From a virus (Duplodnaviria > Caudoviricetes): a DNA stretch of 64,000 bases. The position numbers and the translations under genes were made by a program. Below, one piece after another: positions 3,373-27,260 of the stretch. The stretch lies in the IMG/VR virus record IMGVR_UViG_3300037420_002493, positions 1-64,000 of that record; one strand, given 5' to 3'. A model generated the notes under the pieces. That model worked only from the letters and a program-made list of their open reading frames with translations. It had not been told where the DNA came from and did no database searches. How positions within the stretch are numbered: position 1 is the first letter of the stretch; every line of letters begins with the position of its first letter.

Positions 3373-3888
3373 TTAAGGTGGAACAATATCGCTCTCTGAA
3401 AGCAGCATTTGCACTACAACGCTGTCCCCAAGTTCAGGGTAGTAGACGTTTTCCAGAATTTCTGGATACTTCACAAATACGGCATTGAACTGAGCAAAGT
3501 ACTCGACGTAGCTGCCCCCGATCGTGCTCACCGTATCGTTCGGACTCGGAGCAGTGGCGCGAGTTCTGGTTTTCTCTCGAACCGGAACAAAGGTGTCAAT
3601 GAGTAGCAGGTTTGGGTTATCAGCATCATCGGGAGTGGGATTGCCCGCACTTCTGCGGCGGCGATCGTCGTACTCCCAGAAAAGCAGCTCTAGTGTGGGG
3701 TAGTCGGACAATGCCAACAAGCCTTGAAACTCCCACAGAAAAGGCAACTCATAAGCACTGCCTTTTAGAATTGTTGCGCCTCCTGCAGATCGTTCGGGTG
3801 CGGCAAATTCTGCCCGGATTCGTGGAACTTTTGCATCCATGAAAGCGGGAAAAGCAACGGATAGTGTCCCGATCGAAATCGTAATCAT
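3373..3888 (-). CDS. Putative distal tail (Dit-like) protein
   Basis: 171 aa, first gene of minus-strand tail-tip block, size/position typical of Dit. Confidence 0.45.
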   Translation of the reverse strand: MITISIGTLSVAFPAFMDAKVPRIRAEFAAPERSAGGATILKGSAYELPFLWEFQGLLALSDYPTLELLFWEYDDRRRRSAGNPTPDDADNPNLLLIDTFVPVREKTRTRATAPSPNDTVSTIGGSYVEYFAQFNAVFVKYPEILENVYYPELGDSVVVQMLLSESDIVPP

Positions 3889-4117: not shown

Positions 4118-7100
4118 ATGACCGTTCGCATTCCCCTTGAATTTGGCTCTTCTGGTACAGGCAAAACAGTTCAGGAGATTCTCGCAATTCGAGATGCGAT
4201 TAAACGGACATCTAATGAGCGGAGTGGATTTATTCAGCTCTCCGAGGCACTCGGAACCACATACAAAGAAGCAAAGCAGGTAGCCAAGGAATTGGGGGCG
4301 AGCGGAGCACTCATTACTCAGGCTGCGGATGCACTGAAACGATTAGATGCAGCTGGAGCGAACGCCACAACAAAGCTAAATGTTTTACAGCAACGCTTTG
4401 GATTAAGCGCAAAACAAGCCGAAAAGTTTAGTGCCACGATCGAGCAGTATCAAAAGTCTGCGGCTGAATCGACAGAGCAAACCTCAGCGTTTGGCGGTGG
4501 AGTTGCGGAACTGGCATTCAAATTCAACAACGTCATTCAAGCGATTGGAGCATTGGTAGCAGCCGCGAAACCTGCCTATGATTTCTTGATTGGTAGCAAT
4601 GAGAGGCTGAATGCTCAGATCTTAAAAAGTCAGACGAACCTTGCTTCTGCTACTCGCCTGTCTCAAGGGGGGCAGGAAATTACCGACCCTACCGCGAAGA
4701 TTCAAGCTACGCGCTCTCAAATCGAATCTGCGCTAAGGCAGATTGAGAAGGATACCGAAAATCTTGTTGGTGTCACATCTGAACAGGTTAATTCATTTTT
4801 TGACGCCACTCTGACAAACGCGACTCAATTAATTGGTCAGTCGAAGCAATTTGCTGATCCCATTCAATCTGCGACTGCATTGACTAAAGGGTTTGCAGCC
4901 GCTTTTAAGGTAGCTGGTCTGTCGGCAGATCAAGTGTCATCTGAAATTCGCTCAATTTTGACAGGTCAAGAGCTGGAAAACTCCACGATCGCGAAGTCGC
5001 TACAGCTATCTAAAACTCAAATCGATCAATTCAAACAGCAGGGTACTCTGGTTGACCAGTTAAACCAGCGACTTGAGACGTTTGTAGCAGGTAATGCGAT
5101 CGCAGCAAAAACGATTGAGGGAGCTGGCTCTAACATCGTAGACTTTTTGCAGCGGTTAGGTCGGGTGGCTGGCGAACCATTGCTGCAACCCATTACAGAT
5201 GCACTCACCGATCTCTTTGCATTTCTGAAGAAAAATGAAGCTGCAATTTTTGCATTCTTTAAAGGCTTCGTTGAAGGCGGAGTTGCAACCGCTAGGCAGG
5301 TTTCAGCGACCCTAAAGCCTGCCCTTGAAGGATTGCTTGAGTTTGTTCAAAAGGGTGCGCCGCTAGTTCAAAATCTATTCACCCTCTTTAGTACTGGAGT
5401 CATTACCACGGCTGACGCCATCGCTAATAGTCCGATCCTGCAACTCTTGGGACAAATTATTATCACCGCAACTGACGGACTAAGCAAGCTCAGCGAACTA
5501 GTTCTGCTGCGGCAGATTAACGATGGCGTAGATGCGCTTGAAGCTCTGAATCAACAATCCCAACGACTGACGGACGAAACCTCAAAAACAGTTCTCACCC
5601 TAAAACAACTGAACGACCAACGCTCCAAGGGTATTCCACTGACAGAAGAGCAGCAGTTGCAGGAGAAGGCGTTGCAGCAGAATGCAAAAAATCTTGTTCC
5701 CGCGATCGACGGAATGATTGAATCATATAAACAACTGAAGGCGATCGCTCCTGAAACTGCAAAAGGTCGAGAAGCAGAAATTGCGAATTTGGAGAAACTG
5801 AAGGAGTCTTTGCAGGGGGCAAACGGAGCGCTCACCATTCAAGGCAAAGAAGCTCAGAATCTAGGCGATTCCTATACTCAGTTGAAAAACAAGACGGAAG
5901 CTGCCCAGCGAATTATTAACGCTGGGCTAGAGACGCCTGAACTTCAACAAGCTTTTAAGGATCGATTGGAGACAACTCAAGAACTTGTTGAATTGGGAAA
6001 AATCACCTCTCAAGAGGCGGCTCGTCGTCTCGAAGAAATTCAGAATAATGCGAAGGCTGATGTCGATACTCAACTGAAGGCAAAGCAAGATGCTGTCAAA
6101 ATTAAAAAGGATCAGGTCGATGCCGAAATCGCTCTAATTCAGGCTGGTCAAGCTGAAATCGAAGCATCACAGGCAGCGGGGCGAATCGGAGAGGCAGAAG
6201 CCGATAAGGAACTCACTGATTCTAAAGCCGAAGAAATTCAGAAACGGATTGAGGCGAATAAAGCGGCACTCGAAACAGCATCGGGACCGGAACGAGAAAA
6301 ATTACTGGCTGAAGAACGGAAACTGCAATCGGAACTTGAAAAGGTGCGCGAAGAGTTCCGTAAACGTGAGAACAAACGTCGATTAGAAGATTTCGACGAA
6401 CAGCGCAAAGTTTTAGAAGGTCAATTCGCGCGCGGTGCCACCGATCGGGCAACGTACAATCAGCAACTCACCCAGATTGACCAGCAACAATCCGCTGAGG
6501 AATTGCGCCAATTGGGTGAGGACTTACAGCGACTAGAATCGACCGACAAAGAGGGTCGGGAGGCTATCAACGCCAAGATAGGTGAGGCTTACAAGAAACG
6601 GTCTGAACTGGCAAAACAAGCCTTCGATCGGGAAGTGAAACTCCTAGATGACGCTCTAGCAAAATCCAATGATCTGATTAAGCTGGCTGAAACCGAGTTT
6701 CAAACCGATGTGCAGGCACTGCAAAATATTGGAGCTATTTCGACGGAAGAAGCTGACAAGCGACGACTTGATTCGACGCTTAACCGCATTTCTAAAGAGT
6801 TTGATGCGGAACAAGAAAAATACGATGCATTAGCGGCGCTGCCCTCGTTGGATGACCCGCTTGCACAAGAAGAGCAGCAAAAAGTTCTGCGTGCTCAGCA
6901 ACAAAAACTAGCCGATTTACGCTTACAGAATTTGCAGGTCATCGAGCAGCGTGAGCAGAAGTTGCGTGACATCGCTATTAAGGGTATTCAGCAACAAACG
7001 GCACTTGAGAAAGCCCGAATCGACTCCACGATCGGACTGCTTGCAAAACGCAAATCAGTAGAAGATGCAGTCGCTCGCTCTATTGACCGACAAGGAAAAT

Positions 7101-8838: not shown

Positions 8839-9420
8839 ATGCCGGGGTTAAACGACAAACAGCAGAAATTTTGTGAAGAGTACCTGATTGACCTGAATGC
8901 AACACAGGCAGCAATTCGGGCTGGATATAGCTCTAAAACAGCTCGCTCTATCGGGCAACGATTGTTGACAAATGTTGACATTCAGGCTCGAATCCAAGAA
9001 CTTCAGTTAAAGCGCTCCGATCGTACGAGCATCAAAGCAGATCGGGTTCTTCAAGAGTTAGCTCGCGTTGCATTTGCTGATGTCACAGATGTCATTCGCT
9101 TTGACGACGGAGGCATTATGTTTAATGACTCCAGTGCATTAGATAAAGATGTGACAGCGGCGATCGCATCGATTAGCCACCAAAAGACGGATAAAGGCAC
9201 TACCCGATCGGTGCGAATGCACAACAAAGTGGGGGCGTTACTAAAGCTGGTTGACCATCTTGGCTTGGCTGACGATGAAAACAAAGCCCTTTCTACGTTA
9301 CGGCGCTATGGTTACAAGGTCGAACGAACTGAAACAGGCTACCTCTTGACGGATAGTTACTTAAACGATGCTGACTCTGGAGAAACCGAAACGTCATCGG
9401 CTGAGAGCGACGAACCATAA
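8839..9420 (+). CDS. terS: Terminase small subunit
   Basis: LNDKQQKFCEEYLIDLNATQAAIRAGYS motif; ATG at 8839 preferred over the longer ORF call. Confidence 0.92.
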   Translation: MPGLNDKQQKFCEEYLIDLNATQAAIRAGYSSKTARSIGQRLLTNVDIQARIQELQLKRSDRTSIKADRVLQELARVAFADVTDVIRFDDGGIMFNDSSALDKDVTAAIASISHQKTDKGTTRSVRMHNKVGALLKLVDHLGLADDENKALSTLRRYGYKVERTETGYLLTDSYLNDADSGETETSSAESDEP

Positions 9421-10951
9421 AGCTTCTATTCCGAAAGAGAAGCAGATTACAGGTAAGTCGCCCATCCTGGAAATCTTGGAGCAGAAACAGGCGCAAAATC
9501 TAGCGATCGGAGTTGTCACATCCCTGTGGGCACTGTTTGCGCCGATGTTGAGCATCCAGACATCGGGAACAGTCAAGCCGTTTGAACCCTACGACTATCA
9601 GATAGACCTGATTCAAACGATCGAGGAAAACACCAATATTGCCTGCGTCAAAAGTCGGCAGATGGGAGTGAGCGAGTGCGCCTGCTCCTACCTTCTGATG
9701 CGGGCACTGACCGAACCGGGTTTCTCTGCCGTCGTGTTCTCAAAAACGCAGGAAGACAGTTCAGAATTGGGAAGACGTATCAGGGATTCTGCCCTTTCAC
9801 TCGGTTCGTTGTGCCCTGAACTTGCCAGCGAGAGTGCCAAGAAACTCGCGTTTAAGGGACTTGGAAAGATTTACTTTTTACCTGTGACAGCTCGTGCAGC
9901 ACGAGGCATTCCCTCTGTTTCGGTAGTGCTGTTTGATGAGGCAGCATTCATCGACGGCATTGACGGAGTGTATCAGGCTGCAATGCCTACGCTGTCAATG
10001 CTTGGGGATAAAGGCAAGGTTATTTTCCTTTCAACTCCCAACGGTCGATCGGGCTTGTTCTACCGATTATTAGTGGCTGGTGTTGGTGAAGCGCAACGTG
10101 TGACAACCTCACTTCAAGAAGTACGTCAGGCTGCCAATGATATCAAGCCGTTTGAGCGCAAAGATAAGCACACCCGATCGTGGGTGTGTCGTAAATGGGC
10201 AAAAGTATTCCTGCACTGGCGGGTTCACCCCATCTACGGACACGATCCGAATTGGGCGGAGAAAACACGGGAAGAACGGCAGCTCACCCAAGCTCAGTGG
10301 GATCAGGAATACGAACTAGACTTTGGGGTTAGCGGTCGGTTTGTCTTTGACCTAGAGAAGATTGAGCAACTGTCGATCGGGGCATGGCAAGCCCCTCAAT
10401 TTGCTCATCGCTATCTTGCAGGCATCGACCCCAGTTTCGGTGGGGAAGACTTTTTCACGGTGCGGATTTGGGACATTACAAAACTGCCCTATCAGCTCGT
10501 GGCGGAGTTTCGACAGAACTTTAAATCTAAGGACTACTACGTCGAGCAGACCCTAACTCTGTTAGACCGTTACAAACCAGTGCTGACTGGAATTGAGACA
10601 AATTCCGGTGGAGCACTTTATTTCCAAGACTTGATTAAGCAGCGACCCAGGATGACGATCGCGGGTCTGAATATGAGCGGTACGAGTAAGCCTGTTCATA
10701 CCGATCGTTTGGTGCTAATGGCAGAACGCTCTGAACTGAACTTCCCACCGGATGCAGCCACAGAGTATTTACACTTTGTGGAGCACATTAGCAAATCTCG
10801 TACTCGCAAGGCAGAAGCCGGATATCACGACGATACGGTGATGGCAGATGCGGTAGCGTTTGCGTTTATTGACGAGGTTCCACCTGTCCGATCGTACACA
10901 TCCTCATCTAGTGGAAACAGAGAAGTGCATTCGTCGGCAAGTGTCATTTGA
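9368..10951 (+). CDS. terL: Terminase large subunit
   Basis: KSRQMGVS (Walker A-like), VVLFDEAAF (Walker B), STPNG, LAGIDPSFGG and HDDTVMA nuclease motifs. Confidence 0.95.
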   Translation: MLTLEKPKRHRLRATNHKASIPKEKQITGKSPILEILEQKQAQNLAIGVVTSLWALFAPMLSIQTSGTVKPFEPYDYQIDLIQTIEENTNIACVKSRQMGVSECACSYLLMRALTEPGFSAVVFSKTQEDSSELGRRIRDSALSLGSLCPELASESAKKLAFKGLGKIYFLPVTARAARGIPSVSVVLFDEAAFIDGIDGVYQAAMPTLSMLGDKGKVIFLSTPNGRSGLFYRLLVAGVGEAQRVTTSLQEVRQAANDIKPFERKDKHTRSWVCRKWAKVFLHWRVHPIYGHDPNWAEKTREERQLTQAQWDQEYELDFGVSGRFVFDLEKIEQLSIGAWQAPQFAHRYLAGIDPSFGGEDFFTVRIWDITKLPYQLVAEFRQNFKSKDYYVEQTLTLLDRYKPVLTGIETNSGGALYFQDLIKQRPRMTIAGLNMSGTSKPVHTDRLVLMAERSELNFPPDAATEYLHFVEHISKSRTRKAEAGYHDDTVMADAVAFAFIDEVPPVRSYTSSSSGNREVHSSASVI

Positions 10952-12509: not shown

Positions 12510-13637
12510 CTAACATCTTCTAAACTTGACTCGACGCGCTTTACCAGCAGACAGTGAAATATTCCCCTGTGTCTCGCTTTCGCATACAGGGTAGTCATGA
12601 AATGTTGCGTCGGTCATTTCGCTACCTATCCTTATATTTTTTCTTGTTCCATGCATAGTATAAGCCAGCCCACCACAGCGTTCTAGCTTTCTATCCCAGT
12701 AAACTTTAAGACTTATAAAACGAAGGCTTTTAAGAATGTATCGACGCTCTTTTAGTTCTGAGATTTCCTCGCCCTGTTGCCTGCGATAAACAAGAATCCA
12801 ACAAATTCGGATGAGACGATCGCGCCTTTCATCCTCAACCCTGCTGTCGGTATTGCGCCAATACGATCGCGGTTGCGTGTATCGCAAATATTTTTCAAGG
12901 AGATCCCCCGCTTCTTTTGGATAAGGGTTTGGCGTGGGAGGATACCACAACCCCCACGCATGTTTAGAGCGATCGCCGCAATTTATCTGCTGATTTGCTT
13001 TTGTATATTGCAGTAGCTTGGATTTGCTCCATTCAGATGTTCCGCCACAGTCGCACTGCATTAACCATGTCGGCTTGTGAGCGCGATCGCGTTTTCCGGT
13101 CAATCTGACTGCAACAAGTTCACCGAACCGCTGACCGGAAATGTCGTGCGGTCTGCGCTTGTTGTCCACTAATTCTTTCCTGCGTTGTTTCCCCAGGCAT
13201 CCGCACGACTTGCGTTTACCTGAGTCTATGTCATGCCTAGTATCCTGAAACGTCTGTCCGCAGTAGCCGCATTCAAAATTCCAGGGTTGCCGATGCCGCC
13301 CATTTTTAACTCCTTGTTCTGCCTTGCCCAAAACAAGGATCATTCCAATTTTTTGACCAGCAATGAGATCTGGCTTTGCTCTCAATCTGCCATTTCTACG
13401 GGAAGCTTCAGCTTTTGTGCATCCACAAGATGGGTTTGGCTTGCTTGGGCTGTCAAAATAATTGCGCGGTTTCTGAACAGTTCTGCTGCATTCACATTGA
13501 CACCAATACAATTGGATGGAAACTTTGCCACTCTTGTATTTTGGATTGCTAGTTGATTTGAAGACACGATCGCCCTTTCCCAAAACCGTGAGCTTTCCAA
13601 ATCTTTGCCCTGTCGGATCTGGTTTTGCTGCTACCAC
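12510..13637 (-). CDS. Protein with three tandem GQ(R/K)(F/I)G..V...W/Y.C.C.C repeats
   Basis: Repeats of the type found in phage HNH/AP2-associated proteins; no HNH motif recognised. Confidence 0.6.
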   Translation of the reverse strand: MVAAKPDPTGQRFGKLTVLGKGDRVFKSTSNPKYKSGKVSIQLYWCQCECSRTVQKPRNYFDSPSKPNPSCGCTKAEASRRNGRLRAKPDLIAGQKIGMILVLGKAEQGVKNGRHRQPWNFECGYCGQTFQDTRHDIDSGKRKSCGCLGKQRRKELVDNKRRPHDISGQRFGELVAVRLTGKRDRAHKPTWLMQCDCGGTSEWSKSKLLQYTKANQQINCGDRSKHAWGLWYPPTPNPYPKEAGDLLEKYLRYTQPRSYWRNTDSRVEDERRDRLIRICWILVYRRQQGEEISELKERRYILKSLRFISLKVYWDRKLERCGGLAYTMHGTRKNIRIGSEMTDATFHDYPVCESETQGNISLSAGKARRVKFRRC

Positions 13638-13996: not shown

Positions 13997-14245
13997 TTAC
14001 AACCACTGCTCAAACACATCTTCTCTGGTCAGTACCAGCGGGTTGTTTAGTTTCAGAACTTGCCCGATCGCGGGCAACAACTCAGTTGGCAAGCTGACTT
14101 CTCCGCGTTCAATTCGCCCAACCTGCCGACGAGAGTACCCGATCGCCAACGCTAACACCTCTTGTGTGATTCCGAGTGATTTGCGTCGAGTTGAAATGTT
14201 ATTGCCAACAATCTGAGGAGCGGTTTTCGGGCGAACCTGAGACAT
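13997..14245 (-). CDS. XRE/Cro-C1 HTH regulator
   Basis: RRKSLGITQEVLALAIGYSRRQVGRIERGE; divergent from head operon. Confidence 0.85.
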   Translation of the reverse strand: MSQVRPKTAPQIVGNNISTRRKSLGITQEVLALAIGYSRRQVGRIERGEVSLPTELLPAIGQVLKLNNPLVLTREDVFEQWL

Positions 14246-14322
14246 TGCGTACCGAATCAGAACCAGCAACGCCATTTTACTCAAACTCTATCTATTGTGA
14301 TGGTCAGATTACAGAATTCACA

Positions 14323-15762
14323 ATGGCAACTGCAACACAAACGCCACTCAGCATTCTAGGTGTAGAACTATTTCTTCCTGGTGTACGCCGGGATAGTCTA
14401 GGTCGAACAAAAGAATGGGAGGACTGGGAATTAAATGAAATGGCGAGCTCTTACAACTCTGTTGTAAGAGATGTGCATGATGCTCCAGTCTTGATTGGTC
14501 ACGATGGAAAGACCCTAGAACAAGATCAAGGGCTTCCTGCAAACAGCTACGCATCTCCTGAGATGACTCCGCAGGGAGAAGCCTCGTATGCTTGGCTAGA
14601 ACGCGCCTATGTTGAGAACGGAAAACTTAAAGGCGACTATCGAAAAGTCAATCCTAGTTTTGCTCAAGCGCTAGAAAACGAGACCTACAAAAAGCGTTCA
14701 ATTTCAATCTATCCGCGCAACCATCCAGACAATCCCACTCCTGGTAAGCTCAACATTCGCCATGTTGCATACGTTGCCATTCCTGCTGTGAAGGGAATGA
14801 AAGATCACGCTTTTGGAGAGGGCAATTTTTTTGAGTTTGAATTTGCTGAATTTTACGGTTCTGCGTGGAGCGCGATCGCTCGGCTCATGCAAGGACTGCG
14901 CGATCGGATGATTGAAGATGCAGACCTAGAAACTGCTAACGCCACATTTCCCACAGAACTGCTGGATGCGATTCAACGACAGGCAAACGACTCTAACGAT
15001 TACGTCACCGTGAGTCAGTTTGTTGACGCGCTGAACAGTGTTGACGCATTACGCGCTCAAGTTTCCCAACTATCCATGCTCATGCAAGGCTCTGACCTTG
15101 CCTACTCGGAATCAACTATGAATCTCAAGAAAATGATGGCTGACAAGGGAGTAACCGCTGTCAAAGGCATTGCTCCTATGGATTTGCAGGCAATTATCAA
15201 AGGTGACAAAACCGCCACATCGGAGCAGATGCAAATGATTGCTGACGCTTTAGGAGTCAGCGTTGATGAGTTAAAACCGAAAACTACCAACATGAGCGAA
15301 CCAGAAGACTATCAGCAACTCAAGGCGCAAGTTGCCGCCTTAGCCACCGAAAACAAACAACTGCGCGACGATCGTGAGCGCGATCGGGTGACGAATTTCG
15401 TTGAAAAATTGGTTCAAGAACGCAAGGTTCTCCCTGCTAACAAGGCAGAAGTAATTGAACTAGCAATCAGCTTGCCCAATGATAAAACGCTCAACTACAG
15501 CGAAGGAACGGGGAGCGTTGAAGCCACACCGCGCGATCGTTATCTCAGCCAGCTTCAAAAAGGCAAGGAACTCTGGAGCAATTCCCAGATGCCAACCAAC
15601 CCTTCAGACGCGCCGAACAATTTTAGCGAAACCGCCAAGCTCGAAGGGTTTGACGCTGAATCGACCAAAACAGACCAACTGATTAAGCAGCGCATGAAAG
15701 ACCAAGGCTGTGACTATGCCGAAGCGGTCAATCAACTCATTTCTACTGGCGAAATTCGCTAG
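14323..15762 (+). CDS. Mu gpI-like prohead protease/scaffold with internal XRE-like HTH
   Basis: APVLIGH, AYAW/YAWL, YKKRSISIY, RHVAYVAIPAVKGM motifs; coiled-coil scaffold C-terminus; precedes cement and capsid genes. Confidence 0.85.
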   Translation: MATATQTPLSILGVELFLPGVRRDSLGRTKEWEDWELNEMASSYNSVVRDVHDAPVLIGHDGKTLEQDQGLPANSYASPEMTPQGEASYAWLERAYVENGKLKGDYRKVNPSFAQALENETYKKRSISIYPRNHPDNPTPGKLNIRHVAYVAIPAVKGMKDHAFGEGNFFEFEFAEFYGSAWSAIARLMQGLRDRMIEDADLETANATFPTELLDAIQRQANDSNDYVTVSQFVDALNSVDALRAQVSQLSMLMQGSDLAYSESTMNLKKMMADKGVTAVKGIAPMDLQAIIKGDKTATSEQMQMIADALGVSVDELKPKTTNMSEPEDYQQLKAQVAALATENKQLRDDRERDRVTNFVEKLVQERKVLPANKAEVIELAISLPNDKTLNYSEGTGSVEATPRDRYLSQLQKGKELWSNSQMPTNPSDAPNNFSETAKLEGFDAESTKTDQLIKQRMKDQGCDYAEAVNQLISTGEIR

Positions 15763-16201: not shown

Positions 16202-17197
16202 ATGGCAGTCATTACCGGAATGAATGTGAGAGATGTCAAGGCAGGTGATAACCGTGTCTTGACTAATCTCGCAAACGGCTACACCAACGCTGAATTTGTT
16301 GGAAAGTACCTTTCTCCCTTTGTTAAAGTCAAAAGCCGCACTGGCTTGGTAATCAGTTTCGATAAGTCTACGTTTCGTCGCCACAAGGACGATCGGGCAC
16401 CCGGCGGACCCTACAACATCATTGAAGCGGGCTACGAATCAGATCCGTATTCGGTGAAGAACAAGGGTCTGATGTACAAGGTGCCTGTTGAGCACCAGGA
16501 AGAAGCTGCTCAGGCATCTATCAATCTGGGCATGATGGCTCAAAGCGCCTTATCTGACGCTGAAGCACTCAACATCGAACTTGAGCAACGAGATATGGCA
16601 ATCAATCCCGCCAACTACAACGGCTCTACAGCCGCGCTGTCGGGAACAGATAGGTTTGATGATCCCACCTCAACCCCTGGCTTGTTGGTTCGTGATGTCA
16701 GTTCAGACACCGCTCGCAAATGCGGTCGAAGACCAAACTTGATTCTCACTGGACCGGATGTGACAAATGCCTTGGCGGTGCATCCTGACGTGAAACAGCA
16801 GTTTCATCAAACAAATAGCGGATCCATCACCGATGACATGCTGAAAGAGTACTTCGGGCTTCCGAAGGAAGGGCGTTACATTACAGGCGAAGCCATCGAA
16901 GAAGTCAACCCAGCTACTGGTGAAACGGATTTTATTTGGGGTAAATACTTCATTCTGGCGTATGTCAACCCAGCGGCTTTGAAGTCTGGCGAGATTGCCT
17001 ACACCGCTAACAACAACCTCAACCGTATCACTCAGCCCTCCAAGTTCTACACCTACGTGCTAGATGGCAACCCAACGGTTTCTAACCCCTTCTGGGATGA
17101 GTTCCACGATTCTTGGTTCTACAAAATCAAGTTTGAGCGGTCCACAGAAAACACAGGTATCGATTCGGGCTACCTGCTTTCAACGGTGGTGAGCTAA
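16202..17197 (+). CDS. Major capsid protein
   Basis: 331 aa; LTNLANGY.N..FVG..L.P.V.V and GRRPN.IL.G.DV..AL..HP motifs of Mu-like capsids. Confidence 0.88.
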   Translation: MAVITGMNVRDVKAGDNRVLTNLANGYTNAEFVGKYLSPFVKVKSRTGLVISFDKSTFRRHKDDRAPGGPYNIIEAGYESDPYSVKNKGLMYKVPVEHQEEAAQASINLGMMAQSALSDAEALNIELEQRDMAINPANYNGSTAALSGTDRFDDPTSTPGLLVRDVSSDTARKCGRRPNLILTGPDVTNALAVHPDVKQQFHQTNSGSITDDMLKEYFGLPKEGRYITGEAIEEVNPATGETDFIWGKYFILAYVNPAALKSGEIAYTANNNLNRITQPSKFYTYVLDGNPTVSNPFWDEFHDSWFYKIKFERSTENTGIDSGYLLSTVVS

Positions 17198-20413: not shown

Positions 20414-22231
20414 ATGCCGATCGCAGCTTCAGCAAGAATTGACCTAATCGACTCTGACCCGAATGTTGTTTCTAACATCCAAGGTGGTCCAGAGCCACAG
20501 GATGAATGGCTGCATTTTCGCTTCTCACAGGACTATCCTCAATACCAGCGAATGCGGCGTGACCCGCATGTTCGGTCTCGCCTAGATAAACGAGTTGATG
20601 CAATCCTAGGTCGCAGTGTTTTGGTTGAGGCTCCCAAGAAGCGGGGAGCTGCAAAAGCCGCAGAGAAAGTTCAGTCCATTCTCGATAAGGTCAAGTACGA
20701 AGCGCTTTGTAAGGCGGTACTGAAGTCAGGAATGCTGATTGGATTCAGCGTGCTGCAAATCGATTTTGTGGAAGATGAGGACGACAAGACTCTACTGATT
20801 CCAAAGTGGAAGTTTGTTCCACAATCACGCTTCACCTTTGCCTATCACAAGCCGGACGATCGGGCAGTTCTAGTGGTCAATGATGATGATCTTGACCCCG
20901 CAACCGAGATTTTATTAGTTCATGGCTATGAGCTGAGGCTACTCACCAAACGTGCTCCTATCTACGGGGAGCGAGTTCCCAAGAACCGATTTCTATGTTT
21001 TACGTTTGACTCTGAAGATAGCCCGTGGGGTTTGGGACTGGGCTACTCCATTTTCCCGTGGTGGGAAGTCAAACGGTGTGCGCTCAAAGCGTGGTTGCTG
21101 CACTCCGATCGACAAGGTTCACCACCGACGATCGGAACCACCCCAGCCGACCTAGACCCCAGCCATAACGACGACCACAAGAAGATCATTGCTGACTTTG
21201 AGGGGTTTCTGAAGGCGTTATCTCCGAGCAATTGGGCATCGTTTCCTGAAGGGTTTACGGCTCAGTTATTGGAAACGATCGGGCAGAGTGGACCAGAGGT
21301 GCATCAAGCCCTCATTCGGGAAGCAGACAACCAAATCAGTAAAGTTGTGTTGGGAGAAGTCCCCTTCTCGGACAAAGACACAGGCAGTTATGCCGCAAAT
21401 GCATCTCAGGTCGAAGATAGAAGCTCAACCCTGACCGACGGGGATTGCAACCTACTGGATGAGCAACTCTATGACGGGTTGTGGTTGCCAACTTTTGAGC
21501 TAAACAGCATCGTCGATGATGCCCCGATCGTGCGTCGGGAATCATTCGCAGACACGCGCAAAGCCGCCCTTGAGAAGCAGAAGCTAGAGCATTCCAAGGC
21601 GGTAGCTGACCGAGACAAAGAACTGCAAGAACTGGGCTATCGTCGCACCGCTCAGAGTGTACTAGAAATTCATGGTGAAGGGCTGGAGTCGATTCAAACT
21701 GACACCGAGAAGCCGCCATTGGTGAGCACGATCGGGGTCGGTGGAACGCAAGCTCTATTAGGGTTGCTACAGCAAGCGTCGTCTGGAGAGTTGCCGAAAG
21801 AGAATGCGGTGGCAGCAATGGTTGCGATGTTTGGGCTTGACGAGAAAACCGCTGGCGCGATCGTGCCAGAACCGAAGCAAGAAAACTCGCAATCGTCGTC
21901 GCTCGATCAGCTTTTTGGAGGAGATACCGCGCCGACGGATACGACTAACTCAGATACCCCAGCACCTCAACCGCAGTTTACCGAGCCAGAGTCAGAGCAG
22001 GTTGAGACGGTACGGGATGAATTACCCAGCGAGTTTGCCGCAGCCGTTGCAGCGTTGAGCCGACTGGATACGATCGGGCTTGAGGAATTTGGACTGGTAT
22101 GGGATGACACGACCGAGTTTGATGAAGCGATCGCAGCGCTAAACCGAATTGAGGTAGATGGAATAGAGGTTGATATCTCCCTTGACTTTGAGGAGTGGGG
22201 GATTTGCCAACCCGATCGTAGTTACTCATGA
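20414..22231 (+). CDS. Portal protein (DUF935 / Mu gp29-like) with long acidic C-terminal extension
   Basis: DPHV.S.L.KR..AIL; IGFSV.QI; PWGLGLG..IFP.W..KR..LK.W; QISKVVLG motifs. Stop codon lies in last CRISPR repeat. Confidence 0.9.
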   Translation: MPIAASARIDLIDSDPNVVSNIQGGPEPQDEWLHFRFSQDYPQYQRMRRDPHVRSRLDKRVDAILGRSVLVEAPKKRGAAKAAEKVQSILDKVKYEALCKAVLKSGMLIGFSVLQIDFVEDEDDKTLLIPKWKFVPQSRFTFAYHKPDDRAVLVVNDDDLDPATEILLVHGYELRLLTKRAPIYGERVPKNRFLCFTFDSEDSPWGLGLGYSIFPWWEVKRCALKAWLLHSDRQGSPPTIGTTPADLDPSHNDDHKKIIADFEGFLKALSPSNWASFPEGFTAQLLETIGQSGPEVHQALIREADNQISKVVLGEVPFSDKDTGSYAANASQVEDRSSTLTDGDCNLLDEQLYDGLWLPTFELNSIVDDAPIVRRESFADTRKAALEKQKLEHSKAVADRDKELQELGYRRTAQSVLEIHGEGLESIQTDTEKPPLVSTIGVGGTQALLGLLQQASSGELPKENAVAAMVAMFGLDEKTAGAIVPEPKQENSQSSSLDQLFGGDTAPTDTTNSDTPAPQPQFTEPESEQVETVRDELPSEFAAAVAALSRLDTIGLEEFGLVWDDTTEFDEAIAALNRIEVDGIEVDISLDFEEWGICQPDRSYS

Positions 22232-22430
22232 TCGTTGCAGGAGTTGATCTTCAGTTGGGTTTTGAGGAAGCTTGAGTTGCCAACCCACTCTCAATCTTCA
22301 AGCTCGTTGCAGGTTTAGGATCAGGCACTTGCCAACCCACTCTCAATCTTCAAGCTCGTTGCAGTTGCTGCATTTCAGCAACATACCGACGCCCTTGCCA
22401 ACCCGCTCTCAGTCTTTATGATCGTTGCAG
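22204..22430 (-). CRISPR. Mini CRISPR array, 4 repeats (36-37 nt) and 3 spacers (30, 16, 36 nt)
   Basis: Repeats at 22395-22430, 22329-22364, 22277-22312, 22204-22240. Minus-strand consensus CTGCAACGA(N~17)GGGTTGGCAA; middle two identical; immediately downstream of Cas12-like gene. Confidence 0.88.
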
Positions 22431-24367
22431 GGCAACTCCCAAAGCGAAAGCTGGATGTGGTTTTGAAGCCGTTTTGACAAGCGCTTTCTTGAAGATCTTG
22501 AAGATACCCCAGTTTTGCGGGTTGCTGACTCGCTACAGGTGTCACGAAGTCTAGCTGTGTCAGGGATTTCAGAATTTACAAGCATCCCTTTTCCTCCACT
22601 TGCCTGCGTCCTTCGCAATGTATGCGGATTGCGGGCAGTTCTAGGGATCGGAGGCACTAACACAACGGTTAATCCCTGACCAGACGAATCCGGTGATCCT
22701 TTGGCTGCATCCTCAGCAGGTTCACAAACAGTCGTGACTTGTACTTGACTGTTAGGCTCTGGCATGAGCAAGCCTTGTCGAATCGCTGGGGCAATTCGCA
22801 AGGTTCTGTTTTGGACGGGCATCAACTTGCCACACGTCCCGTAAGTGACAGAGCTAAGGAAGTTTGCACTTCCCACTCCGTCTCTGTCTCCTCTCCACCC
22901 ACAACCCCCGTGTTTGGGATTGCAGTAGTAGACGCGGTTTCGCGGCTTGTGCCTGCGTCCGCATTGAGGGCACACTTGAGAGGTAAAGGCTTCACTGGCT
23001 TTCTCGGTTCCGATTCCGCCCGCCAGTTGCATCTTTTCCTCTAAATACTTCGCTTGGGTGGGCATCTCCCACATGTTGTTTCGAGACACTTGTTTGATGC
23101 GACGATTGCCCTTCTTTCTGCCCTTGGGCAATCGGTCCAAATCACCCACGTAAATTTTGCCGACCTTACGTTCAACTGCCCAATCGACAGCGGTACGAGT
23201 AATGGTGTGGTTGGCATAGTTAAGTCTGATCCGGTAATAATCAGCGGCTTTTTGCTGACCCATGTAGAGACGATAATCCCGCTTGCTTCTGCGTCTCAAG
23301 GGTTTGGTGGATTGCTGATTGAGTGCAATGAGTGAGCGTCCCTTACCATCCAGCCCTTCTCTACGACGTTGCCGAATCATTCGCCATGCGTACTTGGCAT
23401 CGCTGCCTGTGCGCTTTTTGCCTTGCCGTTGTCGCTCATTATCTTCTTCCTGCAATCTGCGATAGGTAGCCTTCTCCTCAACAGAGAGGTATTGTCGGAA
23501 TTGCCCCTTAAACACTCGCGCTCTTGCACGATTAATAGCTCGGTAGCGTCCGTCTCGCTCCCGCTTGAGAGCACAGATATCTTTGCCAGAAATAGTTGCC
23601 GTTTCTGCGGTTCCCTCTCCGTTCTGCACGGCAATGACAATGGCACGCTTCTGTCCAAAGTCTACGGCTGCCACTTGGGTGAGTTCAGGATTCGGTTCAA
23701 CGGTGTGCTTTGTGCAGAGATGAAGATAGTAATGACCACTGCGAGATTTAGAAATCTTAGCGTCACCGTCTAGCACTTTACCCTTTAGCTCTGGAAGTCG
23801 CAGCTTCAGTAGATAGGGCTTTGCACCCAGAATTAGCGTGTCTCCTTGGCGCTTGACGTGTAAGCCGCTGAAAGGAACTGGATAGTAGGACTTGAATCGT
23901 TTAGGTAGTTCAGCCTCGTGATCGCCCCGCTTGCGACGAGTAAAACATGCCTTAATAGCTGCCTCAAAGGTGCGACAAATCGCATCTGCTGACTGTGCTG
24001 GAATGCCATAATCAGGTTTCTTGCTCTTACGGACAGCGATAACCAACCGCTCGACACCCTTCTCTTTTCCTTGTTTGGCAGGCTTATTCTCCAACTGCTG
24101 AGGGTAGAGACTGTATTCCTGATTGGTGAACGTGCGAGTCAGTTCGTGTGCCCATCCAAGCTGGAATAGATTTAAGTAGCTGTTCACCTCGTAAGGTTTG
24201 CAGCTTGGGTCAGCCTCTTTTAGGCGCTTGTACTCGTTGCGTTTGTACTGGAGATGTTCAACCAACTGGTTATAGATGCGACGACTCGCTGCAAACATTC
24301 CTTCCAGCATGACTCTCTGGGTTGGAGTAGGAAAGAATTCAATTGTGAGGGTGCGAGTCGCTTCCAT
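22409..24367 (-). CDS. TnpB-derived compact Cas12-like (type V) effector
   Basis: OrfB-type N-terminus; RuvC-I VAAVDFGQK; RuvC-II IYVGDL with alternative Glu in SEAFTSQ; CPQC...C...C zinc finger; RuvC-III DRDGVGSANF; ~85-aa insertion after bridge helix; adjacent array. Confidence 0.88.
   Translation of the reverse strand: MEATRTLTIEFFPTPTQRVMLEGMFAASRRIYNQLVEHLQYKRNEYKRLKEADPSCKPYEVNSYLNLFQLGWAHELTRTFTNQEYSLYPQQLENKPAKQGKEKGVERLVIAVRKSKKPDYGIPAQSADAICRTFEAAIKACFTRRKRGDHEAELPKRFKSYYPVPFSGLHVKRQGDTLILGAKPYLLKLRLPELKGKVLDGDAKISKSRSGHYYLHLCTKHTVEPNPELTQVAAVDFGQKRAIVIAVQNGEGTAETATISGKDICALKRERDGRYRAINRARARVFKGQFRQYLSVEEKATYRRLQEEDNERQRQGKKRTGSDAKYAWRMIRQRRREGLDGKGRSLIALNQQSTKPLRRRSKRDYRLYMGQQKAADYYRIRLNYANHTITRTAVDWAVERKVGKIYVGDLDRLPKGRKKGNRRIKQVSRNNMWEMPTQAKYLEEKMQLAGGIGTEKASEAFTSQVCPQCGRRHKPRNRVYYCNPKHGGCGWRGDRDGVGSANFLSSVTYGTCGKLMPVQNRTLRIAPAIRQGLLMPEPNSQVQVTTVCEPAEDAAKGSPDSSGQGLTVVLVPPIPRTARNPHTLRRTQASGGKGMLVNSEIPDTARLRDTCSESATRKTGVSSRSSRKRLSKRLQNHIQLSLWELPCNDHKD
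22431..22510 (-). promoter_or_regulatory. Putative CRISPR leader
   Basis: Minus strand ...GCGCTTGTCAAAACGGCTTCAAAACCACATCCAGCTTTCGCTTTGGGAGTTGCC|repeat resembles cyanobacterial leaders (judged by eye). Confidence 0.45.
22515..22800 (-). ncRNA. Candidate tracrRNA/scaffold RNA (boundaries approximate)
   Basis: Minus-strand CAACCCGC (22517-22524) is complementary to repeat GCGGGTTG; lies between RuvC-III coding end and leader, as in tracr-dependent small Cas12 loci. Confidence 0.45.
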
Positions 24368-24576
24368 CACGATTCCTCAACTAACTCATCTTCATGGGCA
24401 GAGTCTTCAAACAGGTGTGGACGATCGAACTGGACAAAATACGTGAATCCAGGACGCGACCAGCATGAACCGGGAGCGGTTAACGCATAGAGCACAGCAC
24501 GAATCACACCCGCATCGTTATCGCTCGTTCTGACCCGTTGCCCAATTTGAAACCGACAGGGAGGCAGACTATACAC
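24367..24576 (-). CDS. Small SH3/KOW-like barrel protein (paralog of 58443-58664)
   Basis: F.(I/L).QRV.T...(A/S)G.I......PGFTYF(V/I).FD....FED(S/T)AHE.EL shared; TGA overlaps Cas12-like start. Confidence 0.7.
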   Translation of the reverse strand: MYSLPPCRFQIGQRVRTSDNDAGVIRAVLYALTAPGSCWSRPGFTYFVQFDRPHLFEDSAHEDELVEES

Positions 24577-24838
24577 GGTGACACTCCCCCTGTGGAATCT
24601 GGGCTAATAACTCAGGCGCATCAGCTTCTAGATGAGTAAGATTCTCGTTGACCAACCTTCTCCCAGCCCTCCAAGTCTCTTCGGTAGAGGGAAGAATCCG
24701 ATCGGTCTCAGTGTCTCCTATCTCCTGCCCAAAGGGGTCAAGAACGGCTGTTTTGTAGCCTCCGATGACTTCGATCGGGCAGATTAAATGACCGCGATAT
24801 CTAAAGCTGCAACCCCACAGATAAATGTCTTCTCTCAT
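24569..24838 (-). CDS. Hypothetical protein (paralog of 58183-58446)
   Basis: RG.LI.P(I/V)E.......VL.PFG.EIGDT shared. Confidence 0.7.
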   Translation of the reverse strand: MREDIYLWGCSFRYRGHLICPIEVIGGYKTAVLDPFGQEIGDTETDRILPSTEETWRAGRRLVNENLTHLEADAPELLAQIPQGECHRV

Positions 24839-25125
24839 GACTCAACTACTCCAATAATCCTGTCTTCGTGAATGGTTTCTACCTCATCTCCTTCGTCTCC
24901 ACTCTCAAGGTGGTAATCCCATCCAGGCTCACAGTTCTCCGCAAAGGCAATGGCAACGCGAGTAAACCGACAGCCGCAAATTCTGCCTTCAGCAATCTCG
25001 TCTTTGCTGCTCCCTCTCACTTTGTAGCGAACGGTTTGCCAAATCTCGTATTTGGGCTTTGGAGTAGGGTTACTCAGGTAGTGGTAGAGTTTTTGTTCAA
25101 GTTTGGTTAATGCTGCTTTTGCCAT
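24835..25125 (-). CDS. Small barrel-like protein (paralog of 25129-25446)
   Basis: PKY.(I/L)WQ.V.Y...GR(I/V)CG..F.RV.IAF....PGW.Y shared. Confidence 0.7.
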   Translation of the reverse strand: MAKAALTKLEQKLYHYLSNPTPKPKYEIWQTVRYKVRGSSKDEIAEGRICGCRFTRVAIAFAENCEPGWDYHLESGDEGDEVETIHEDRIIGVVES

Positions 25126-25128
25126 GTC

Positions 25129-25446
25129 TCAGTCCTCCACAATGTCAGTTTCGTAAACCTCGATAATCCTGGCATCGGCTTCGATGCGGTAATACCAGCC
25201 GGGGTCTTCGCCTCGACCTTGAAGAAAGGCAATACCGACGCGCACGAAATGGAAGCCACAGACCCGACCTTGTTTAATTTCTGGGTTGTCGTTGTCGTAA
25301 GATTTATCGTCGTAAGACGTGTATTGAACGAGTTGCCACAAGTTGTATTTGGGCTGAGTTCTGGGGTGATTCAGCAACTCTTGCAAGTGCTGCTCAAATT
25401 CCTCAACCGGATCTGGCGTCACGCCAGTATTGATAGGGGTGGTCAT
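25129..25446 (-). CDS. Small barrel-like protein (paralog of 24835-25125)
   Basis: As above; start MTTPIN. Confidence 0.7.
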   Translation of the reverse strand: MTTPINTGVTPDPVEEFEQHLQELLNHPRTQPKYNLWQLVQYTSYDDKSYDNDNPEIKQGRVCGFHFVRVGIAFLQGRGEDPGWYYRIEADARIIEVYETDIVED

Positions 25447-25460
25447 AAAAACCTCGTAAA

Positions 25461-25913
25461 TTAGCCCAACTGATAAAGACAAACTTGCTCTGCATTGCTC
25501 AGTCCCAACTCGCGCAGAATGAAGCGCGAAATCTCCGAAGGGAACTGAGTTAAAGACAGCTCAATGCGGTTGCTAAACACACCGAGAAAGTGAGCGCGTC
25601 CTTGCTGTGACACTGCTTCTTCGATCAGGGCGTCTAAATCCTCAATCACCGATTGCAGAATCTCAGACTCATCGATCGCAAAGCCCTCTTGGATGTAACT
25701 CACTAAACGCCTTGCTTTTGGAGGTAAGCCCCCATGCTTGAGAATTAGGTCGGTATCTACCTGGTCAAGACATTCTCTTGCCAGTTCTCGTGCGGCAAGT
25801 TCTGCCTCAGTGACAGTGCCAGTGGCGTATTCCTTGCCGTTGATTTTGAAGACGATTAAGCCGTAGAAGTCGTCTTGGGACTTCTGAATTGCGGTTCTAA
25901 CTGCTGTGAGCAT
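25461..25913 (-). CDS. Hypothetical protein
   Basis: 150 aa ORF in the operon leading to the Cas12-like gene. Confidence 0.65.
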   Translation of the reverse strand: MLTAVRTAIQKSQDDFYGLIVFKINGKEYATGTVTEAELAARELARECLDQVDTDLILKHGGLPPKARRLVSYIQEGFAIDESEILQSVIEDLDALIEEAVSQQGRAHFLGVFSNRIELSLTQFPSEISRFILRELGLSNAEQVCLYQLG

Positions 25914-25951
25914 GACTCGCCTAATTCCTAGTTCAGTGGTGTAGAGGGTGA

Positions 25952-25976
25952 GGCATCCTGATCGGATCAGGATGCC
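25952..25976. other. Perfect 11-bp stem-loop GGCATCCTGAT-CGG-ATCAGGATGCC
   Basis: Intergenic, between first and second genes of the minus-strand operon. Confidence 0.7.
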
Positions 25977-25984
25977 AAAGGGAG

Positions 25985-26251
25985 TTAGAAGGCTTGGCAG
26001 GTCTGAGCGAGTTCTTTCTCTTCGACGCGCCAGTCTTGACCCGTAGCAGCTTTTAAGGTTCGGTTGAGCTGGTCGTTAGCCCAGATATCTTGACGAACCA
26101 GGACATCGAAATCTTGAAAATCTAGGGTGGCTTGGCAGCTTTCAAAGCGTCTGGCTTTGACGTGGTAGCGACGAGTAACGACTCCGGTATAGGTAGCGCT
26201 CGGAGCGGTGATGAGACGGGTTTGCTTGGAGGGTGCGATCGTTGTTAGCAT
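25985..26251 (-). CDS. Hypothetical protein, first gene of the operon ending in Cas12-like gene
   Basis: 88 aa; divergent from XRE gene. Confidence 0.6.
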   Translation of the reverse strand: MLTTIAPSKQTRLITAPSATYTGVVTRRYHVKARRFESCQATLDFQDFDVLVRQDIWANDQLNRTLKAATGQDWRVEEKELAQTCQAF

Positions 26252-26418
26252 GACGTAAATCCTTTCGTGGGGTTTGTGGAGGAAGCGCTTGAAGTTGTCC
26301 AGACCCAGAGCGCTTTCTCTATGCTTTCAATATTACCTATTAAGTAATGCTTGTCAAGTAATACCTATGAAGATAAGATATATCTGTAGGCAAACGAGAT
26401 ACTTGAGAGGTGATACCT

Positions 26419-26673
26419 ATGGGGCAATTCTTGGTGAAGATCACCTATACGAAGGACTTTCCGGGAATTGGAAAGCAGATACGCGAATACAGACGGCAAT
26501 CAGATAAGCCTCTAGCTGAGTTGGCAGCAGAGGCAGGTATCAGCGTTCCTCACTGGAACCGAGTTGAAAACGAAAAAGTTGGAGAGCTGCCACTAGAAAC
26601 GCTTCGAGGTATCGAAAAGGCTCTTGGCGTTGATCTAGGAGTACGCTTCGATGATTCATCCTCAAGCCAGTAA
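26419..26673 (+). CDS. XRE/Cro-C1 HTH regulator
   Basis: IREYR...KPLAELAAEAGISVPHWNRVEN...LRGIEKALGVDL. Confidence 0.85.
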   Translation: MGQFLVKITYTKDFPGIGKQIREYRRQSDKPLAELAAEAGISVPHWNRVENEKVGELPLETLRGIEKALGVDLGVRFDDSSSSQ

Positions 26674-26810: not shown

Positions 26811-27260
26811 ATGATCCCGATGTTCAGTGCTAACGGAAAATTACCGCCTGGTATCCATCGTTGTACATGGAAAGAATTTGTGGAGCGCTTTGGAATCACG
26901 CCCCATCGCTTGAACCTAATTGCTGGGCTTAAAAGGGCAATGGAGCACTTACAGATAGCGGGATGTTCCATTATTTACATTGACGGCAGTTTTGTAACCG
27001 ACAAAGTAGTGCCTGGCGATTTCGATGCTTGTTGGGAAACTAGAGGTGTTGATGCAAAAAAACTAATCTCGATCGCTCCCTCCTTGTTGGACTTTTCTAA
27101 CAGACGAGCTGCTCAGAAAGCAGAGTACGGCGGAGAGTTATTTTTTGCTGGAGTACCCGCAGATAATGCTGGAAATTTATTTCTAGATTTCTTCCAGATG
27201 GATAGAGATGGTCAGCCCAAAGGGATTATTGCTATTGATTTAGAGAGGTGGCAGCCGTGA
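26811..27260 (+). CDS. Nucleotidyltransferase-fold protein (DUF6932-like)
   Basis: G.LPPGIH..TW.EF..RFG; IYIDGSFVT.K..PGDFD. Confidence 0.75.
   Translation: MIPMFSANGKLPPGIHRCTWKEFVERFGITPHRLNLIAGLKRAMEHLQIAGCSIIYIDGSFVTDKVVPGDFDACWETRGVDAKKLISIAPSLLDFSNRRAAQKAEYGGELFFAGVPADNAGNLFLDFFQMDRDGQPKGIIAIDLERWQP

Follow-up and report, generated by a model that had tools for sequence, protein, structure and literature searches.

The DNA analysed here, hereafter the window, comprises positions 1–64,000 of the IMG/VR record IMGVR_UViG_3300037420_002493 (Caudoviricetes), a provirus whose full record is 74,054 bp long and estimated to be 75% complete. On its minus strand, at 22409–24370, lies the gene of a TnpB-derived, Cas12-like effector (P0001), which runs directly into a small CRISPR array; gene and array together are the subject of this study. 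The effector is 653 amino acids (aa) long when read from the GTG at 24370, or 652 aa when read from the ATG at 24367, the latter being the length given in a preliminary description of this DNA, made without database searches.

The stop codon of the effector gene (TGA, 22409–22411) falls inside the first of four repeats, which, like the spacers, are oriented as the gene. Repeat 1 (36 nucleotides, nt; 22395–22430) overlaps the last seven codons and the stop and shows five differences from repeats 2 (22329–22364) and 3 (22277–22312), which are identical to each other, while repeat 4 (37 nt, 22204–22240) has a degenerate middle with both ends kept. The spacers in between measure 30 nt (spacer 1, 22365–22394), 16 nt (spacer 2, 22313–22328) and 36 nt (spacer 3, 22241–22276). 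The preliminary description was right in reporting four heterogeneous repeats of 36–37 nt, which span 22204–22430, and irregular spacers, but the leader and the anti-repeat that it had placed between the gene and the array are not there: repeat 1 overlaps the stop codon, and the anti-repeat is located inside the open reading frame (ORF), as detailed below. A guide length of 16 nt is within the range reportedly used in ISDra2 TnpB cleavage assays, so spacer 2 need not be dead. At the other end, the antisense of repeat 4 (22204–22231) encodes the last nine codons and the stop of a Mu-like portal gene (20414–22231, plus strand), which means that the array abuts and overlaps the portal ORF. Beyond repeat 4, a guide would consist of the antisense of the portal gene's 3′ end.

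The effector belongs to a rare family, with 24 proteins among 5.8 billion protein clusters (34–61% identity). An exhaustive profile search recovered about 16 family representatives at 50% identity, after which the scores fall steeply from 270 to 175 bits and reach ordinary TnpBs of about 400 aa, while a tblastn search of the effector against 50,697 phage records returned only distant TnpBs (24–33% identity) of Clostridioides and Geobacillus phages. The named relatives come from filamentous cyanobacteria (Leptolyngbya, Trichocoleus and Floridaenema). The preliminary description had called for homologs with arrays, and these exist: when the downstream DNA of 15 family loci besides the window was read, 14 of these diverged loci had an array at the same place, starting at the stop codon or no more than a few bases from it and made of 3–13 repeats of 35–38 nt with spacers of mostly 34–38 nt. 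In the fifteenth locus, that of Leptolyngbya FACHB-541 (L001), a single repeat is fused to the start of the next gene (DUF932). Repeat 1 includes the stop codon in each of the 14 loci checked for it. Repeats and array are therefore not due to chance, and since the repeat sequences vary widely between loci, the arrays were not inherited as one frozen block. The genomes of two GTDB species (L022 in G144 and L023 in G086) share one more distantly related member of the family, identical in both, whose array has 13 regular repeats; the 3′ end of this repeat seems to resemble that of cyanobacterial class 1 and V-K repeats.

Evidence for a guide-RNA function comes from the 3′ part of the effector gene. 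To study it, the last ~300 nt of the family genes were aligned together with repeat 1. In this alignment, RNAalifold identified compensatory changes in a hairpin and in a long-range helix, to which a third helix was added around a conserved loop. In the window, the resulting scaffold, which has the characters of a tracrRNA (trans-activating CRISPR RNA) or of an omega-RNA-like element, spans approximately 22431–22680 (minus strand) and includes helix 1 (22672–22679 with 22578–22585), the hairpin (22623–22626 with 22614–22617) and helix 3 (22547–22554 with 22524–22531), the latter enclosing the conserved loop of 15 nt (22532–22546). Across the family, 79% of the positions of the three helices are paired, versus 64% in shuffled alignments, with 15 pairs changed on both sides (0 of 500 shuffles match these values), while controls in which the helices were slid reach 23–43%.

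The anti-repeat is bipartite and lies about 95 nt upstream of the array, in the part of the gene that encodes the disordered C-terminal tail. Its 5′ module, directly after helix 3, is an 8-mer (22517–22524) complementary to repeat nt −12 to −5, and its 3′ module, which pairs with the 5′ half of the repeat, is a tandem duplication of 9 nt (22488–22505), each copy of which is complementary to nt 11–19 of repeats 2 and 3. The pairing of the 8-mer with the repeat covaries in all 15 loci (110 of 112 cells paired, with up to five pair types per position), a value that none of 20,000 permutations reaches. The match of the 3′ module is perfect for repeats 2 and 3 and poor for repeat 1, which is also under coding constraint; this suggests that the units acting in trans may be the better guides in the window.

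The same stretch is kept as a reading frame. The tail (aa 531–653, 22412–22780, minus strand) is open in all relatives, with no stop codon in 14 × 120 codons, whereas the two other frames contain 54 and 129 stops, and the insertions and deletions among homologs preserve the frame. Since the frame is kept open while the RNA covaries, this DNA has a double function: translated, it yields a disordered tail, and as RNA it is structured. Moreover, scaffold, repeat 1 and spacer 1 are contiguous, which is the layout of an omega RNA, whose scaffold overlaps the 3′ end of the ORF and continues into the guide. A scan of 21,000–25,500 against Rfam gave only a chance match to a long non-coding RNA. Near its C-terminus, the tail bears a nearly invariant QLxLW motif (aa 640–644, 22439–22453 in the window) that resembles a sliding-clamp-binding peptide, and a QLTLF motif is present in the tail of an outgroup TnpB (P0038). 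In L022 and L023, both the Q and the W of this motif are stop codons (TAG and TAG), though the nucleotides are kept. As the nucleotides are conserved beyond what the residues need, the motif may owe its conservation to an RNA element.

At the protein level, the effector combines a TnpB core with three additions. AlphaFold2 models aa 1–530 with confidence, while the pLDDT score falls below 50 from about aa 531 onwards, so that the tail appears disordered. Pfam locates an HTH_OrfB_IS605 domain at aa 2–45 and a Cas12f1-like TNB zinc-finger domain at aa 441–503, in which the four cysteines (C467, C470, C483 and C490; 22901–22972) are all invariant; both the IS605 OrfB-type N-terminus and the zinc finger had been recognized in the preliminary description. 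Compared to its nearest TnpBs of ~400 aa, the protein is 200–250 aa larger, owing to an insertion in the recognition (REC) region (about aa 50–120), a basic helical insertion (roughly aa 283–360, 23291–23524) that is absent from these TnpBs, and the C-terminal tail. The helical insertion, first estimated at ~85 aa, measures about 75–80 aa and follows the helix after RuvC-I. The structure prediction proposed at that stage bears out a TnpB/Cas12f-like core, with ISDra2 TnpB as the closest fold (Z 19.2, root-mean-square deviation 3.5, 332 residues aligned), followed by Cas12f enzymes (Z 17–18) and, at Z 12–13, by Cas12k, LaTranC (13.1), Cas12m and a partial RdCas12n chain (9J09, 12.4).

That the effector is a RuvC protein holds with one nuance. 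The Asp residues of RuvC-I (D237, 23660–23662), which varies neither within the family nor among the nearest TnpBs, and of RuvC-III (D497 in a DRD motif, 22880–22882), also invariant, are in place, but RuvC-II is not canonical, with an invariant Gly (G409 in YVGDL, 23144–23146) at the position of the Glu. An invariant alternative Glu (E435 in a WE motif, 23066–23068), located 26 residues downstream of G409, is presumed to be the relocated RuvC-II residue, with a putative catalytic role. The same Gly is common to the eight nearest TnpBs aligned, the Gly plus WE arrangement is found in the nearest TnpBs, and a Gly-for-Glu rearrangement of RuvC-II has been described in large TnpB clades, which were argued from models to be probably still active (PMC10691335). 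Judging by these shared residues, the effector is a descendant of TnpBs with a rearranged RuvC-II. D237, E435 and D497 are invariant across proteins of 34–61% identity, which suggests that the active site is maintained, and the rearranged site is accordingly a candidate nuclease centre; with the canonical Glu missing, cleavage is something that we infer.

The gene is embedded in the phage genome rather than in a transposon. It is the last gene of a minus-strand operon (26251 to 22409) of small overlapping ORFs: six of these, of unknown function, precede it (24367–26251), and the stop codon of the last one (24367–24576) overlaps the effector start as TGATG, in agreement with the translational coupling and the terminal operon position noted in the preliminary description. 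Ahead of the operon, there is a sigma-70-like promoter match (26330–26357, minus strand; 10 of 12 positions, a match to the consensus only), and the divergent gene beyond it (26410–26673, plus strand) encodes a helix-turn-helix (HTH) repressor-like regulator. An HTH regulator gene also adjoins the cassette in L006, L007 and L008, i.e., in four loci with the window. The effector gene is single-copy in the provirus and is present in one copy each in 3 of the 401 cyanobacterial genomes searched. Neither Y1 TnpA (searched by Hidden Markov Model, HMM, profiles, which were not applied to the serine-recombinase TnpA) nor Cas1 and Cas2 were found in the whole 74-kb provirus record, which extends to the full record what had been noted for the window about tnpA and adaptation genes. 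TniQ and the rve domain are likewise missing from the 74-kb record (TnsC was not searched separately). Among the relatives, no cas1 or cas2 was called within 3–8 kb of the effector genes, or up to the contig end, and their cassettes lie in differing neighbourhoods of differing phages, without any transposase.

The phage nature of the surroundings is apparent from the genes for the large terminase (9368–10951), the head protease (14176–15762) and the major head protein (16202–17197), in addition to the portal gene. The HTH gene and the divergent promoter-like site together look like a phage immunity or switch region. Beside the HTH regulator, a full-length DUF6932 protein (Pfam, E 1e-40) is encoded at 26811–27260 (plus strand), while an HNH endonuclease gene (PHROG 374; 12510–13637, minus strand) sits between the terminase and head-protease genes, on the strand opposite to the structural module.

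Clues to what the arrays are aimed at come from the relatives. The three spacers of the window have no match in the full 74-kb provirus at up to 20% mismatches, none in INPHARED by blastn, and no exact 23-mer match in IMG/VR or in the JGI metagenome contigs (exact words miss imperfect matches). Likewise, cross-targeting among the family loci examined was limited to self-like matches in L006 and L007. In L006, an early gene located 3 kb away on the same element is matched by spacer 2 over 33 of 33 nt and by spacer 4 over 27 of 28 nt. The matched stretches (4833–4891) overlap by 9 nt, together cover about 60 nt at the 5′ end of that gene, and correspond to codons 8–27 of the first gene in the operon that diverges from the HTH-led operon of the effector. 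For two non-adjacent spacers to fall on overlapping stretches of one gene is unusual for independent acquisitions. The mismatches of these self-like matches are confined to the 3–9 nt proximal to the repeat. Spacer 1 of L007 copies, in diverged form, the beginning of a neighbouring gene. Such resemblance of spacers to early genes of their own phage suggests a conflict between related phages. The simplest reading of these sequences would be that the guides are directed against phages closely related to the carrier, whose own copy is spared through the mismatches at the seed end. Superinfection exclusion, by which a prophage would keep out related phages, is then the likely role, and it has reportedly been proposed for the short arrays borne by other viruses.

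As to how spacers are gained, the narrow spacer range of 34–38 nt in most relatives suggests that a measuring integrase acting in trans may supply their spacers; the array repeat was not found elsewhere in the genomes G001, G086 and G144, where a second array could have served adaptation in trans. Very short spacers occur too, with 16 nt in the window, 13 nt in L016 and 11 nt in L018. At 3534–3638 of L007, 85% identity between spacers 3 and 4, together with variants common to their repeats, marks a repeat–spacer unit that was duplicated and then diverged. Together with the truncated spacers of the window, L016 and L018, the duplicated unit points to recombination and decay in arrays that are not renewed.

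We interpret the locus as a prophage-borne, TnpB-derived, type V-like CRISPR system that consists of one effector gene, a tracrRNA in its 3′ tail and a mini-array, and we give this reading a probability of about three in four. The view of the preliminary description that a TnpB has been domesticated into a CRISPR effector gains support from the conserved association with an array, the single copy and the lack of a transposase or insertion sequence partner, as well as from the covarying scaffold. Beyond the gene itself, what is read directly from the DNA is the family-wide link to the array, the scaffold helices, the covariation of repeat and anti-repeat, the open frame and the absence of cas1, cas2, tnpA and Tn7 genes. 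Under this interpretation, transcription of the operon would begin at about 26,350 and continue across the effector gene into the array, and the last ~250 nt of the coding region would fold into the three covarying helices and the anti-repeat. Repeat 1 and spacer 1, covalently joined to the scaffold in the primary transcript, would form a natural single guide with the layout of a TnpB omega RNA, while repeats 2–4 with their spacers would be processed into CRISPR RNAs (crRNAs) that pair in trans with the same anti-repeat, so that the scaffold would double as a tracrRNA. The effector, with its TnpB/Cas12f-like core, extra REC and helical insertions and rearranged RuvC site (D237, E435 and D497), would bind this RNA and cut spacer-complementary DNA next to a 5′ motif. 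Its use likely lies in conflicts between mobile elements, with the prophage excluding related superinfecting phages. Transcription and processing, nuclease activity at the rearranged site, the protospacer-adjacent motif (PAM), the targets and the biological role are what we infer.

Several observations weigh against this interpretation. The canonical RuvC-II Glu is missing, which is why cleavage has the conditional status given to it above. The spacers of the window match nothing in the provirus, IMG/VR, INPHARED or the JGI metagenome contigs, and the three self-like protospacers of the relatives share no clear flank, hence no PAM could be derived. The array of the window is irregular (spacers of 30, 16 and 36 nt, a degenerate repeat 4, and a repeat 1 that fits the 3′ module of the anti-repeat poorly) and may be decaying. 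Moreover, the minimum free energy of the scaffold, when folded as a single sequence, is no better than that of shuffled sequences (z −0.32), so its support is covariation.

The missing Glu also opens the way to the main rival, a regulatory role without cutting, in which the effector, its RuvC inactive or weak, would be an RNA-guided DNA binder or repressor that guides steer to promoters or 5′ ends of phage genes, those of its own phage or of a related one, to control the switch between lysis and lysogeny, comparable to TldR, Cas12m and Cas12c. The invariance of the Gly that replaces the Glu agrees with such a role, as do the HTH regulators adjoining the cassette, the recurrence of very short spacers in the window, L016 and L018, and the self-like matches themselves, since the L006 spacers fall on codons 8–27 of the first gene of a divergent operon and the L007 spacer on a gene start. 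Yet the invariance of D237, E435 and D497 at 34–61% identity suggests that the active site has been maintained, and the same Gly and alternative Glu characterize large, still mobile TnpB clades that are judged active (PMC10691335). Furthermore, the spacers of the window are without match in their own provirus, and the repeat-proximal mismatches in the self-like matches of the relatives fit the avoidance of self-cutting better than designed binding. We thus regard a repressor as unlikely. The return to an ordinary IS200/IS605-type TnpB, whose downstream repeats would be chance or decayed copies of its right end, fares far worse, even though the N-terminal OrfB HTH and TNB domains are present, ISDra2 TnpB is among the closest folds and the NCBIfam model guided_TnpB gives 77 bits, if below its cut-off of 100: an identically placed array in 14 of 15 diverged loci, a single-copy gene without TnpA, a protein 200–250 aa larger than its TnpB neighbours and a translationally coupled position in a phage operon all contradict it, and we rejected it as highly improbable.

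A further possibility, compatible with a TnpB-derived CRISPR system, is that the cassette is a selfish homing element. The terminal repeat and the flank behind it would then act as an omega-RNA-like guide by which cassette-free alleles in co-infecting relatives are cut, with recombinational repair copying the cassette into them; the flank would be the portal 3′ end in antisense in the window and a truncated DUF932 gene in L001, and the internal spacers would be secondary. Here, the ends of the arrays become meaningful: repeat 4 abuts and overlaps the portal end, so that the next 'guide' would be portal sequence, and L001 has its one repeat fused to the start of the DUF932 gene. The omega RNA layout and the presence of the cassette in differing neighbourhoods of phages, without any transposase, are also as expected. 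On the other hand, no cassette-free allele was found, the portal being without a close relative in IMG/VR (pattern search), repeat 4 is degenerate in its middle, and regular arrays with several spacers, for which homing has no need, occur in most relatives. On balance, homing is doubtful as an account of the locus, though attractive as a complement to the main reading. A combination of both functions, i.e., a dual-mode, transposase-free homing element of temperate cyanophages, in which the flank guide copies the cassette via repair while the internal units exclude competitors, is rather improbable in our opinion; were it true, the locus would be a living example of the step from omega RNA to tracrRNA and crRNA, in which the first unit has remained attached to the scaffold.

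The locus adds a compact effector lineage (core of ~530 aa), with a guide scaffold within its own gene and an origin in the branch of TnpBs with a rearranged RuvC-II. In the literature examined, no biochemical experiment on that branch as a CRISPR effector came to light; if active, the protein would be a small candidate genome editor whose active-site geometry differs. Fused (omega-like) and split (tracrRNA plus crRNA) guide forms would stand side by side in one prophage, which lends support to the view that phages are among the settings in which nucleases of transposons become CRISPR systems. With regard to cyanophage biology, the locus suggests an RNA-guided route to superinfection exclusion.

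How, then, does this locus compare to known systems? Virus-borne mini-CRISPR arrays have reportedly been studied in the context of interviral conflicts, as short arrays on viral genomes with spacers against closely related viruses. The spacers of the window's relatives are similar in resembling genes of their own phage, but the phage of the window has its own effector and tracrRNA, whereas, to our knowledge, those archaeal viruses are without an effector and rely on host Cas proteins. On the transposon side, the HMM scores of the effector stay below both NCBIfam cut-offs (guided_TnpB, 77.3 bits versus 100; IS200_TnpB, 29.5 versus 425), and membership among the IS200/IS605 or IS607 TnpBs (obligate mobile element-guided activity, OMEGA) was rejected on these scores, on the lack of Y1 TnpA in the provirus and on the single copy. 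We also discarded a Cas12k or CRISPR-associated transposon, as TniQ and the rve domain are both missing from the 74-kb record and Cas12k is a mid-rank fold match only. In contrast, the locus has two traits of minimal type V systems of the V-U style, namely a single TnpB-like RuvC effector and an array linked to it across diverged homologs. The HMM placement suggested in the preliminary description was run for two of these subtypes, V-U4/Cas12n and V-U2, and the protein fits neither. The PADLOC model Cas12u2 matches 3 of 17 family members, weakly, against 526 bits for gp061 of cyanophage CL131 as a control, which excludes V-U2 (C2c8). By sequence, V-U4/Cas12n was rejected as well, the model Cas12u4 matching 5 of 17 members weakly (best E 2e-11) while giving 159 bits to a V-U2 protein. 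The best match of the family profile among PDB sequences is nevertheless RdCas12n (9J09; E 1.8e-7, 33 bits), though over the N-terminal HTH and TNB only.

Cas12n (V-N, formerly V-U4/C2c9) is a close parallel in organization. Its C-terminal tail is disordered and its tracrRNA overlaps the ORF (PMC12216341; bioRxiv 10.64898/2026.03.27.714800), and it shares with our locus a compact TnpB-like effector with the tracrRNA in the 3′ end of the ORF, an array downstream and the absence of adaptation genes. It differs in that the ORF of the window effector reads through the whole scaffold into repeat 1, with a tail of ~120–150 aa versus the ~30–60 aa reported for Cas12n, and in that RuvC-II is rearranged. 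Moreover, ISDra2 TnpB (Z 19.2) is a better fold match than the partial 9J09 chain (Z 12.4), and the family resides in cyanobacterial prophages, whereas the characterized Cas12n orthologs are from Actinobacteria. The PAM of Cas12n is A-rich (5′-AAN); the three self-like protospacers in the family have no clear flank in common. The cyanophage-borne V-U2 system of vB_AphaS-CL131 (PMC6293099) is similar in its TnpB-like effector, its downstream array and its lack of other cas genes, and its gene-strand repeat (L032, MG209611, 32037–32814) ends in the same 8 nt as the window's repeat when the first spacer base is counted with the latter. However, the two effectors are distantly related: gp061 has 466 aa and a canonical RuvC-II Glu, its pairwise match to P0001 is only local (32 bits), and its array is separated from the stop codon by about 255 nt instead of starting on it.

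TranC proteins, or transposon–CRISPR intermediates (Jin et al., Cell 2025, cited in PMC13565253 and in bioRxiv 10.64898/2026.03.27.714800), are TnpB lineages that independently gained arrays as the omega RNA split; their arrays are short (median of ~5 repeats of 32–38 bp), without cas accessory genes, and some are phage-borne. Our family agrees with them in being a TnpB lineage with a short array, no cas accessory genes and a phage location, but in the clades that the preprint describes the C-terminal domains are structured and the tracrRNA lies outside them, whereas the tail in the window is disordered and holds it. LaTranC is a mid-rank fold match (Z 13.1), and the likeness to the numbered TranC clades is one of description. 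The candidate subtypes V-U6 to V-U45 (Altae-Tran et al. 2023, PMC10691335), 40 V-U* branches to which the family was likewise compared by description, mostly have arrays and no other cas genes. As in the TnpBs with a rearranged RuvC-II of the same study, a Gly replaces the RuvC-II Glu and an alternative Glu lies downstream, a trait common to the nearest relatives of ~400 aa, but our family is ~200–250 aa longer, through the REC insertion, the helical insertion and the tail, and is tied to an array. Altogether, the locus represents a rare lineage, probably uncharacterised, of a kind already outlined by Cas12n, TranC and V-U*, and hence a variation on the lately reported intermediates between transposons and CRISPR systems rather than a system of a new kind. 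What sets it apart is the combination of descent from TnpBs with a rearranged RuvC-II, an ORF extending across the entire tracrRNA and into repeat 1, the co-occurrence of fused and split guides, and residence in cyanobacterial prophages.

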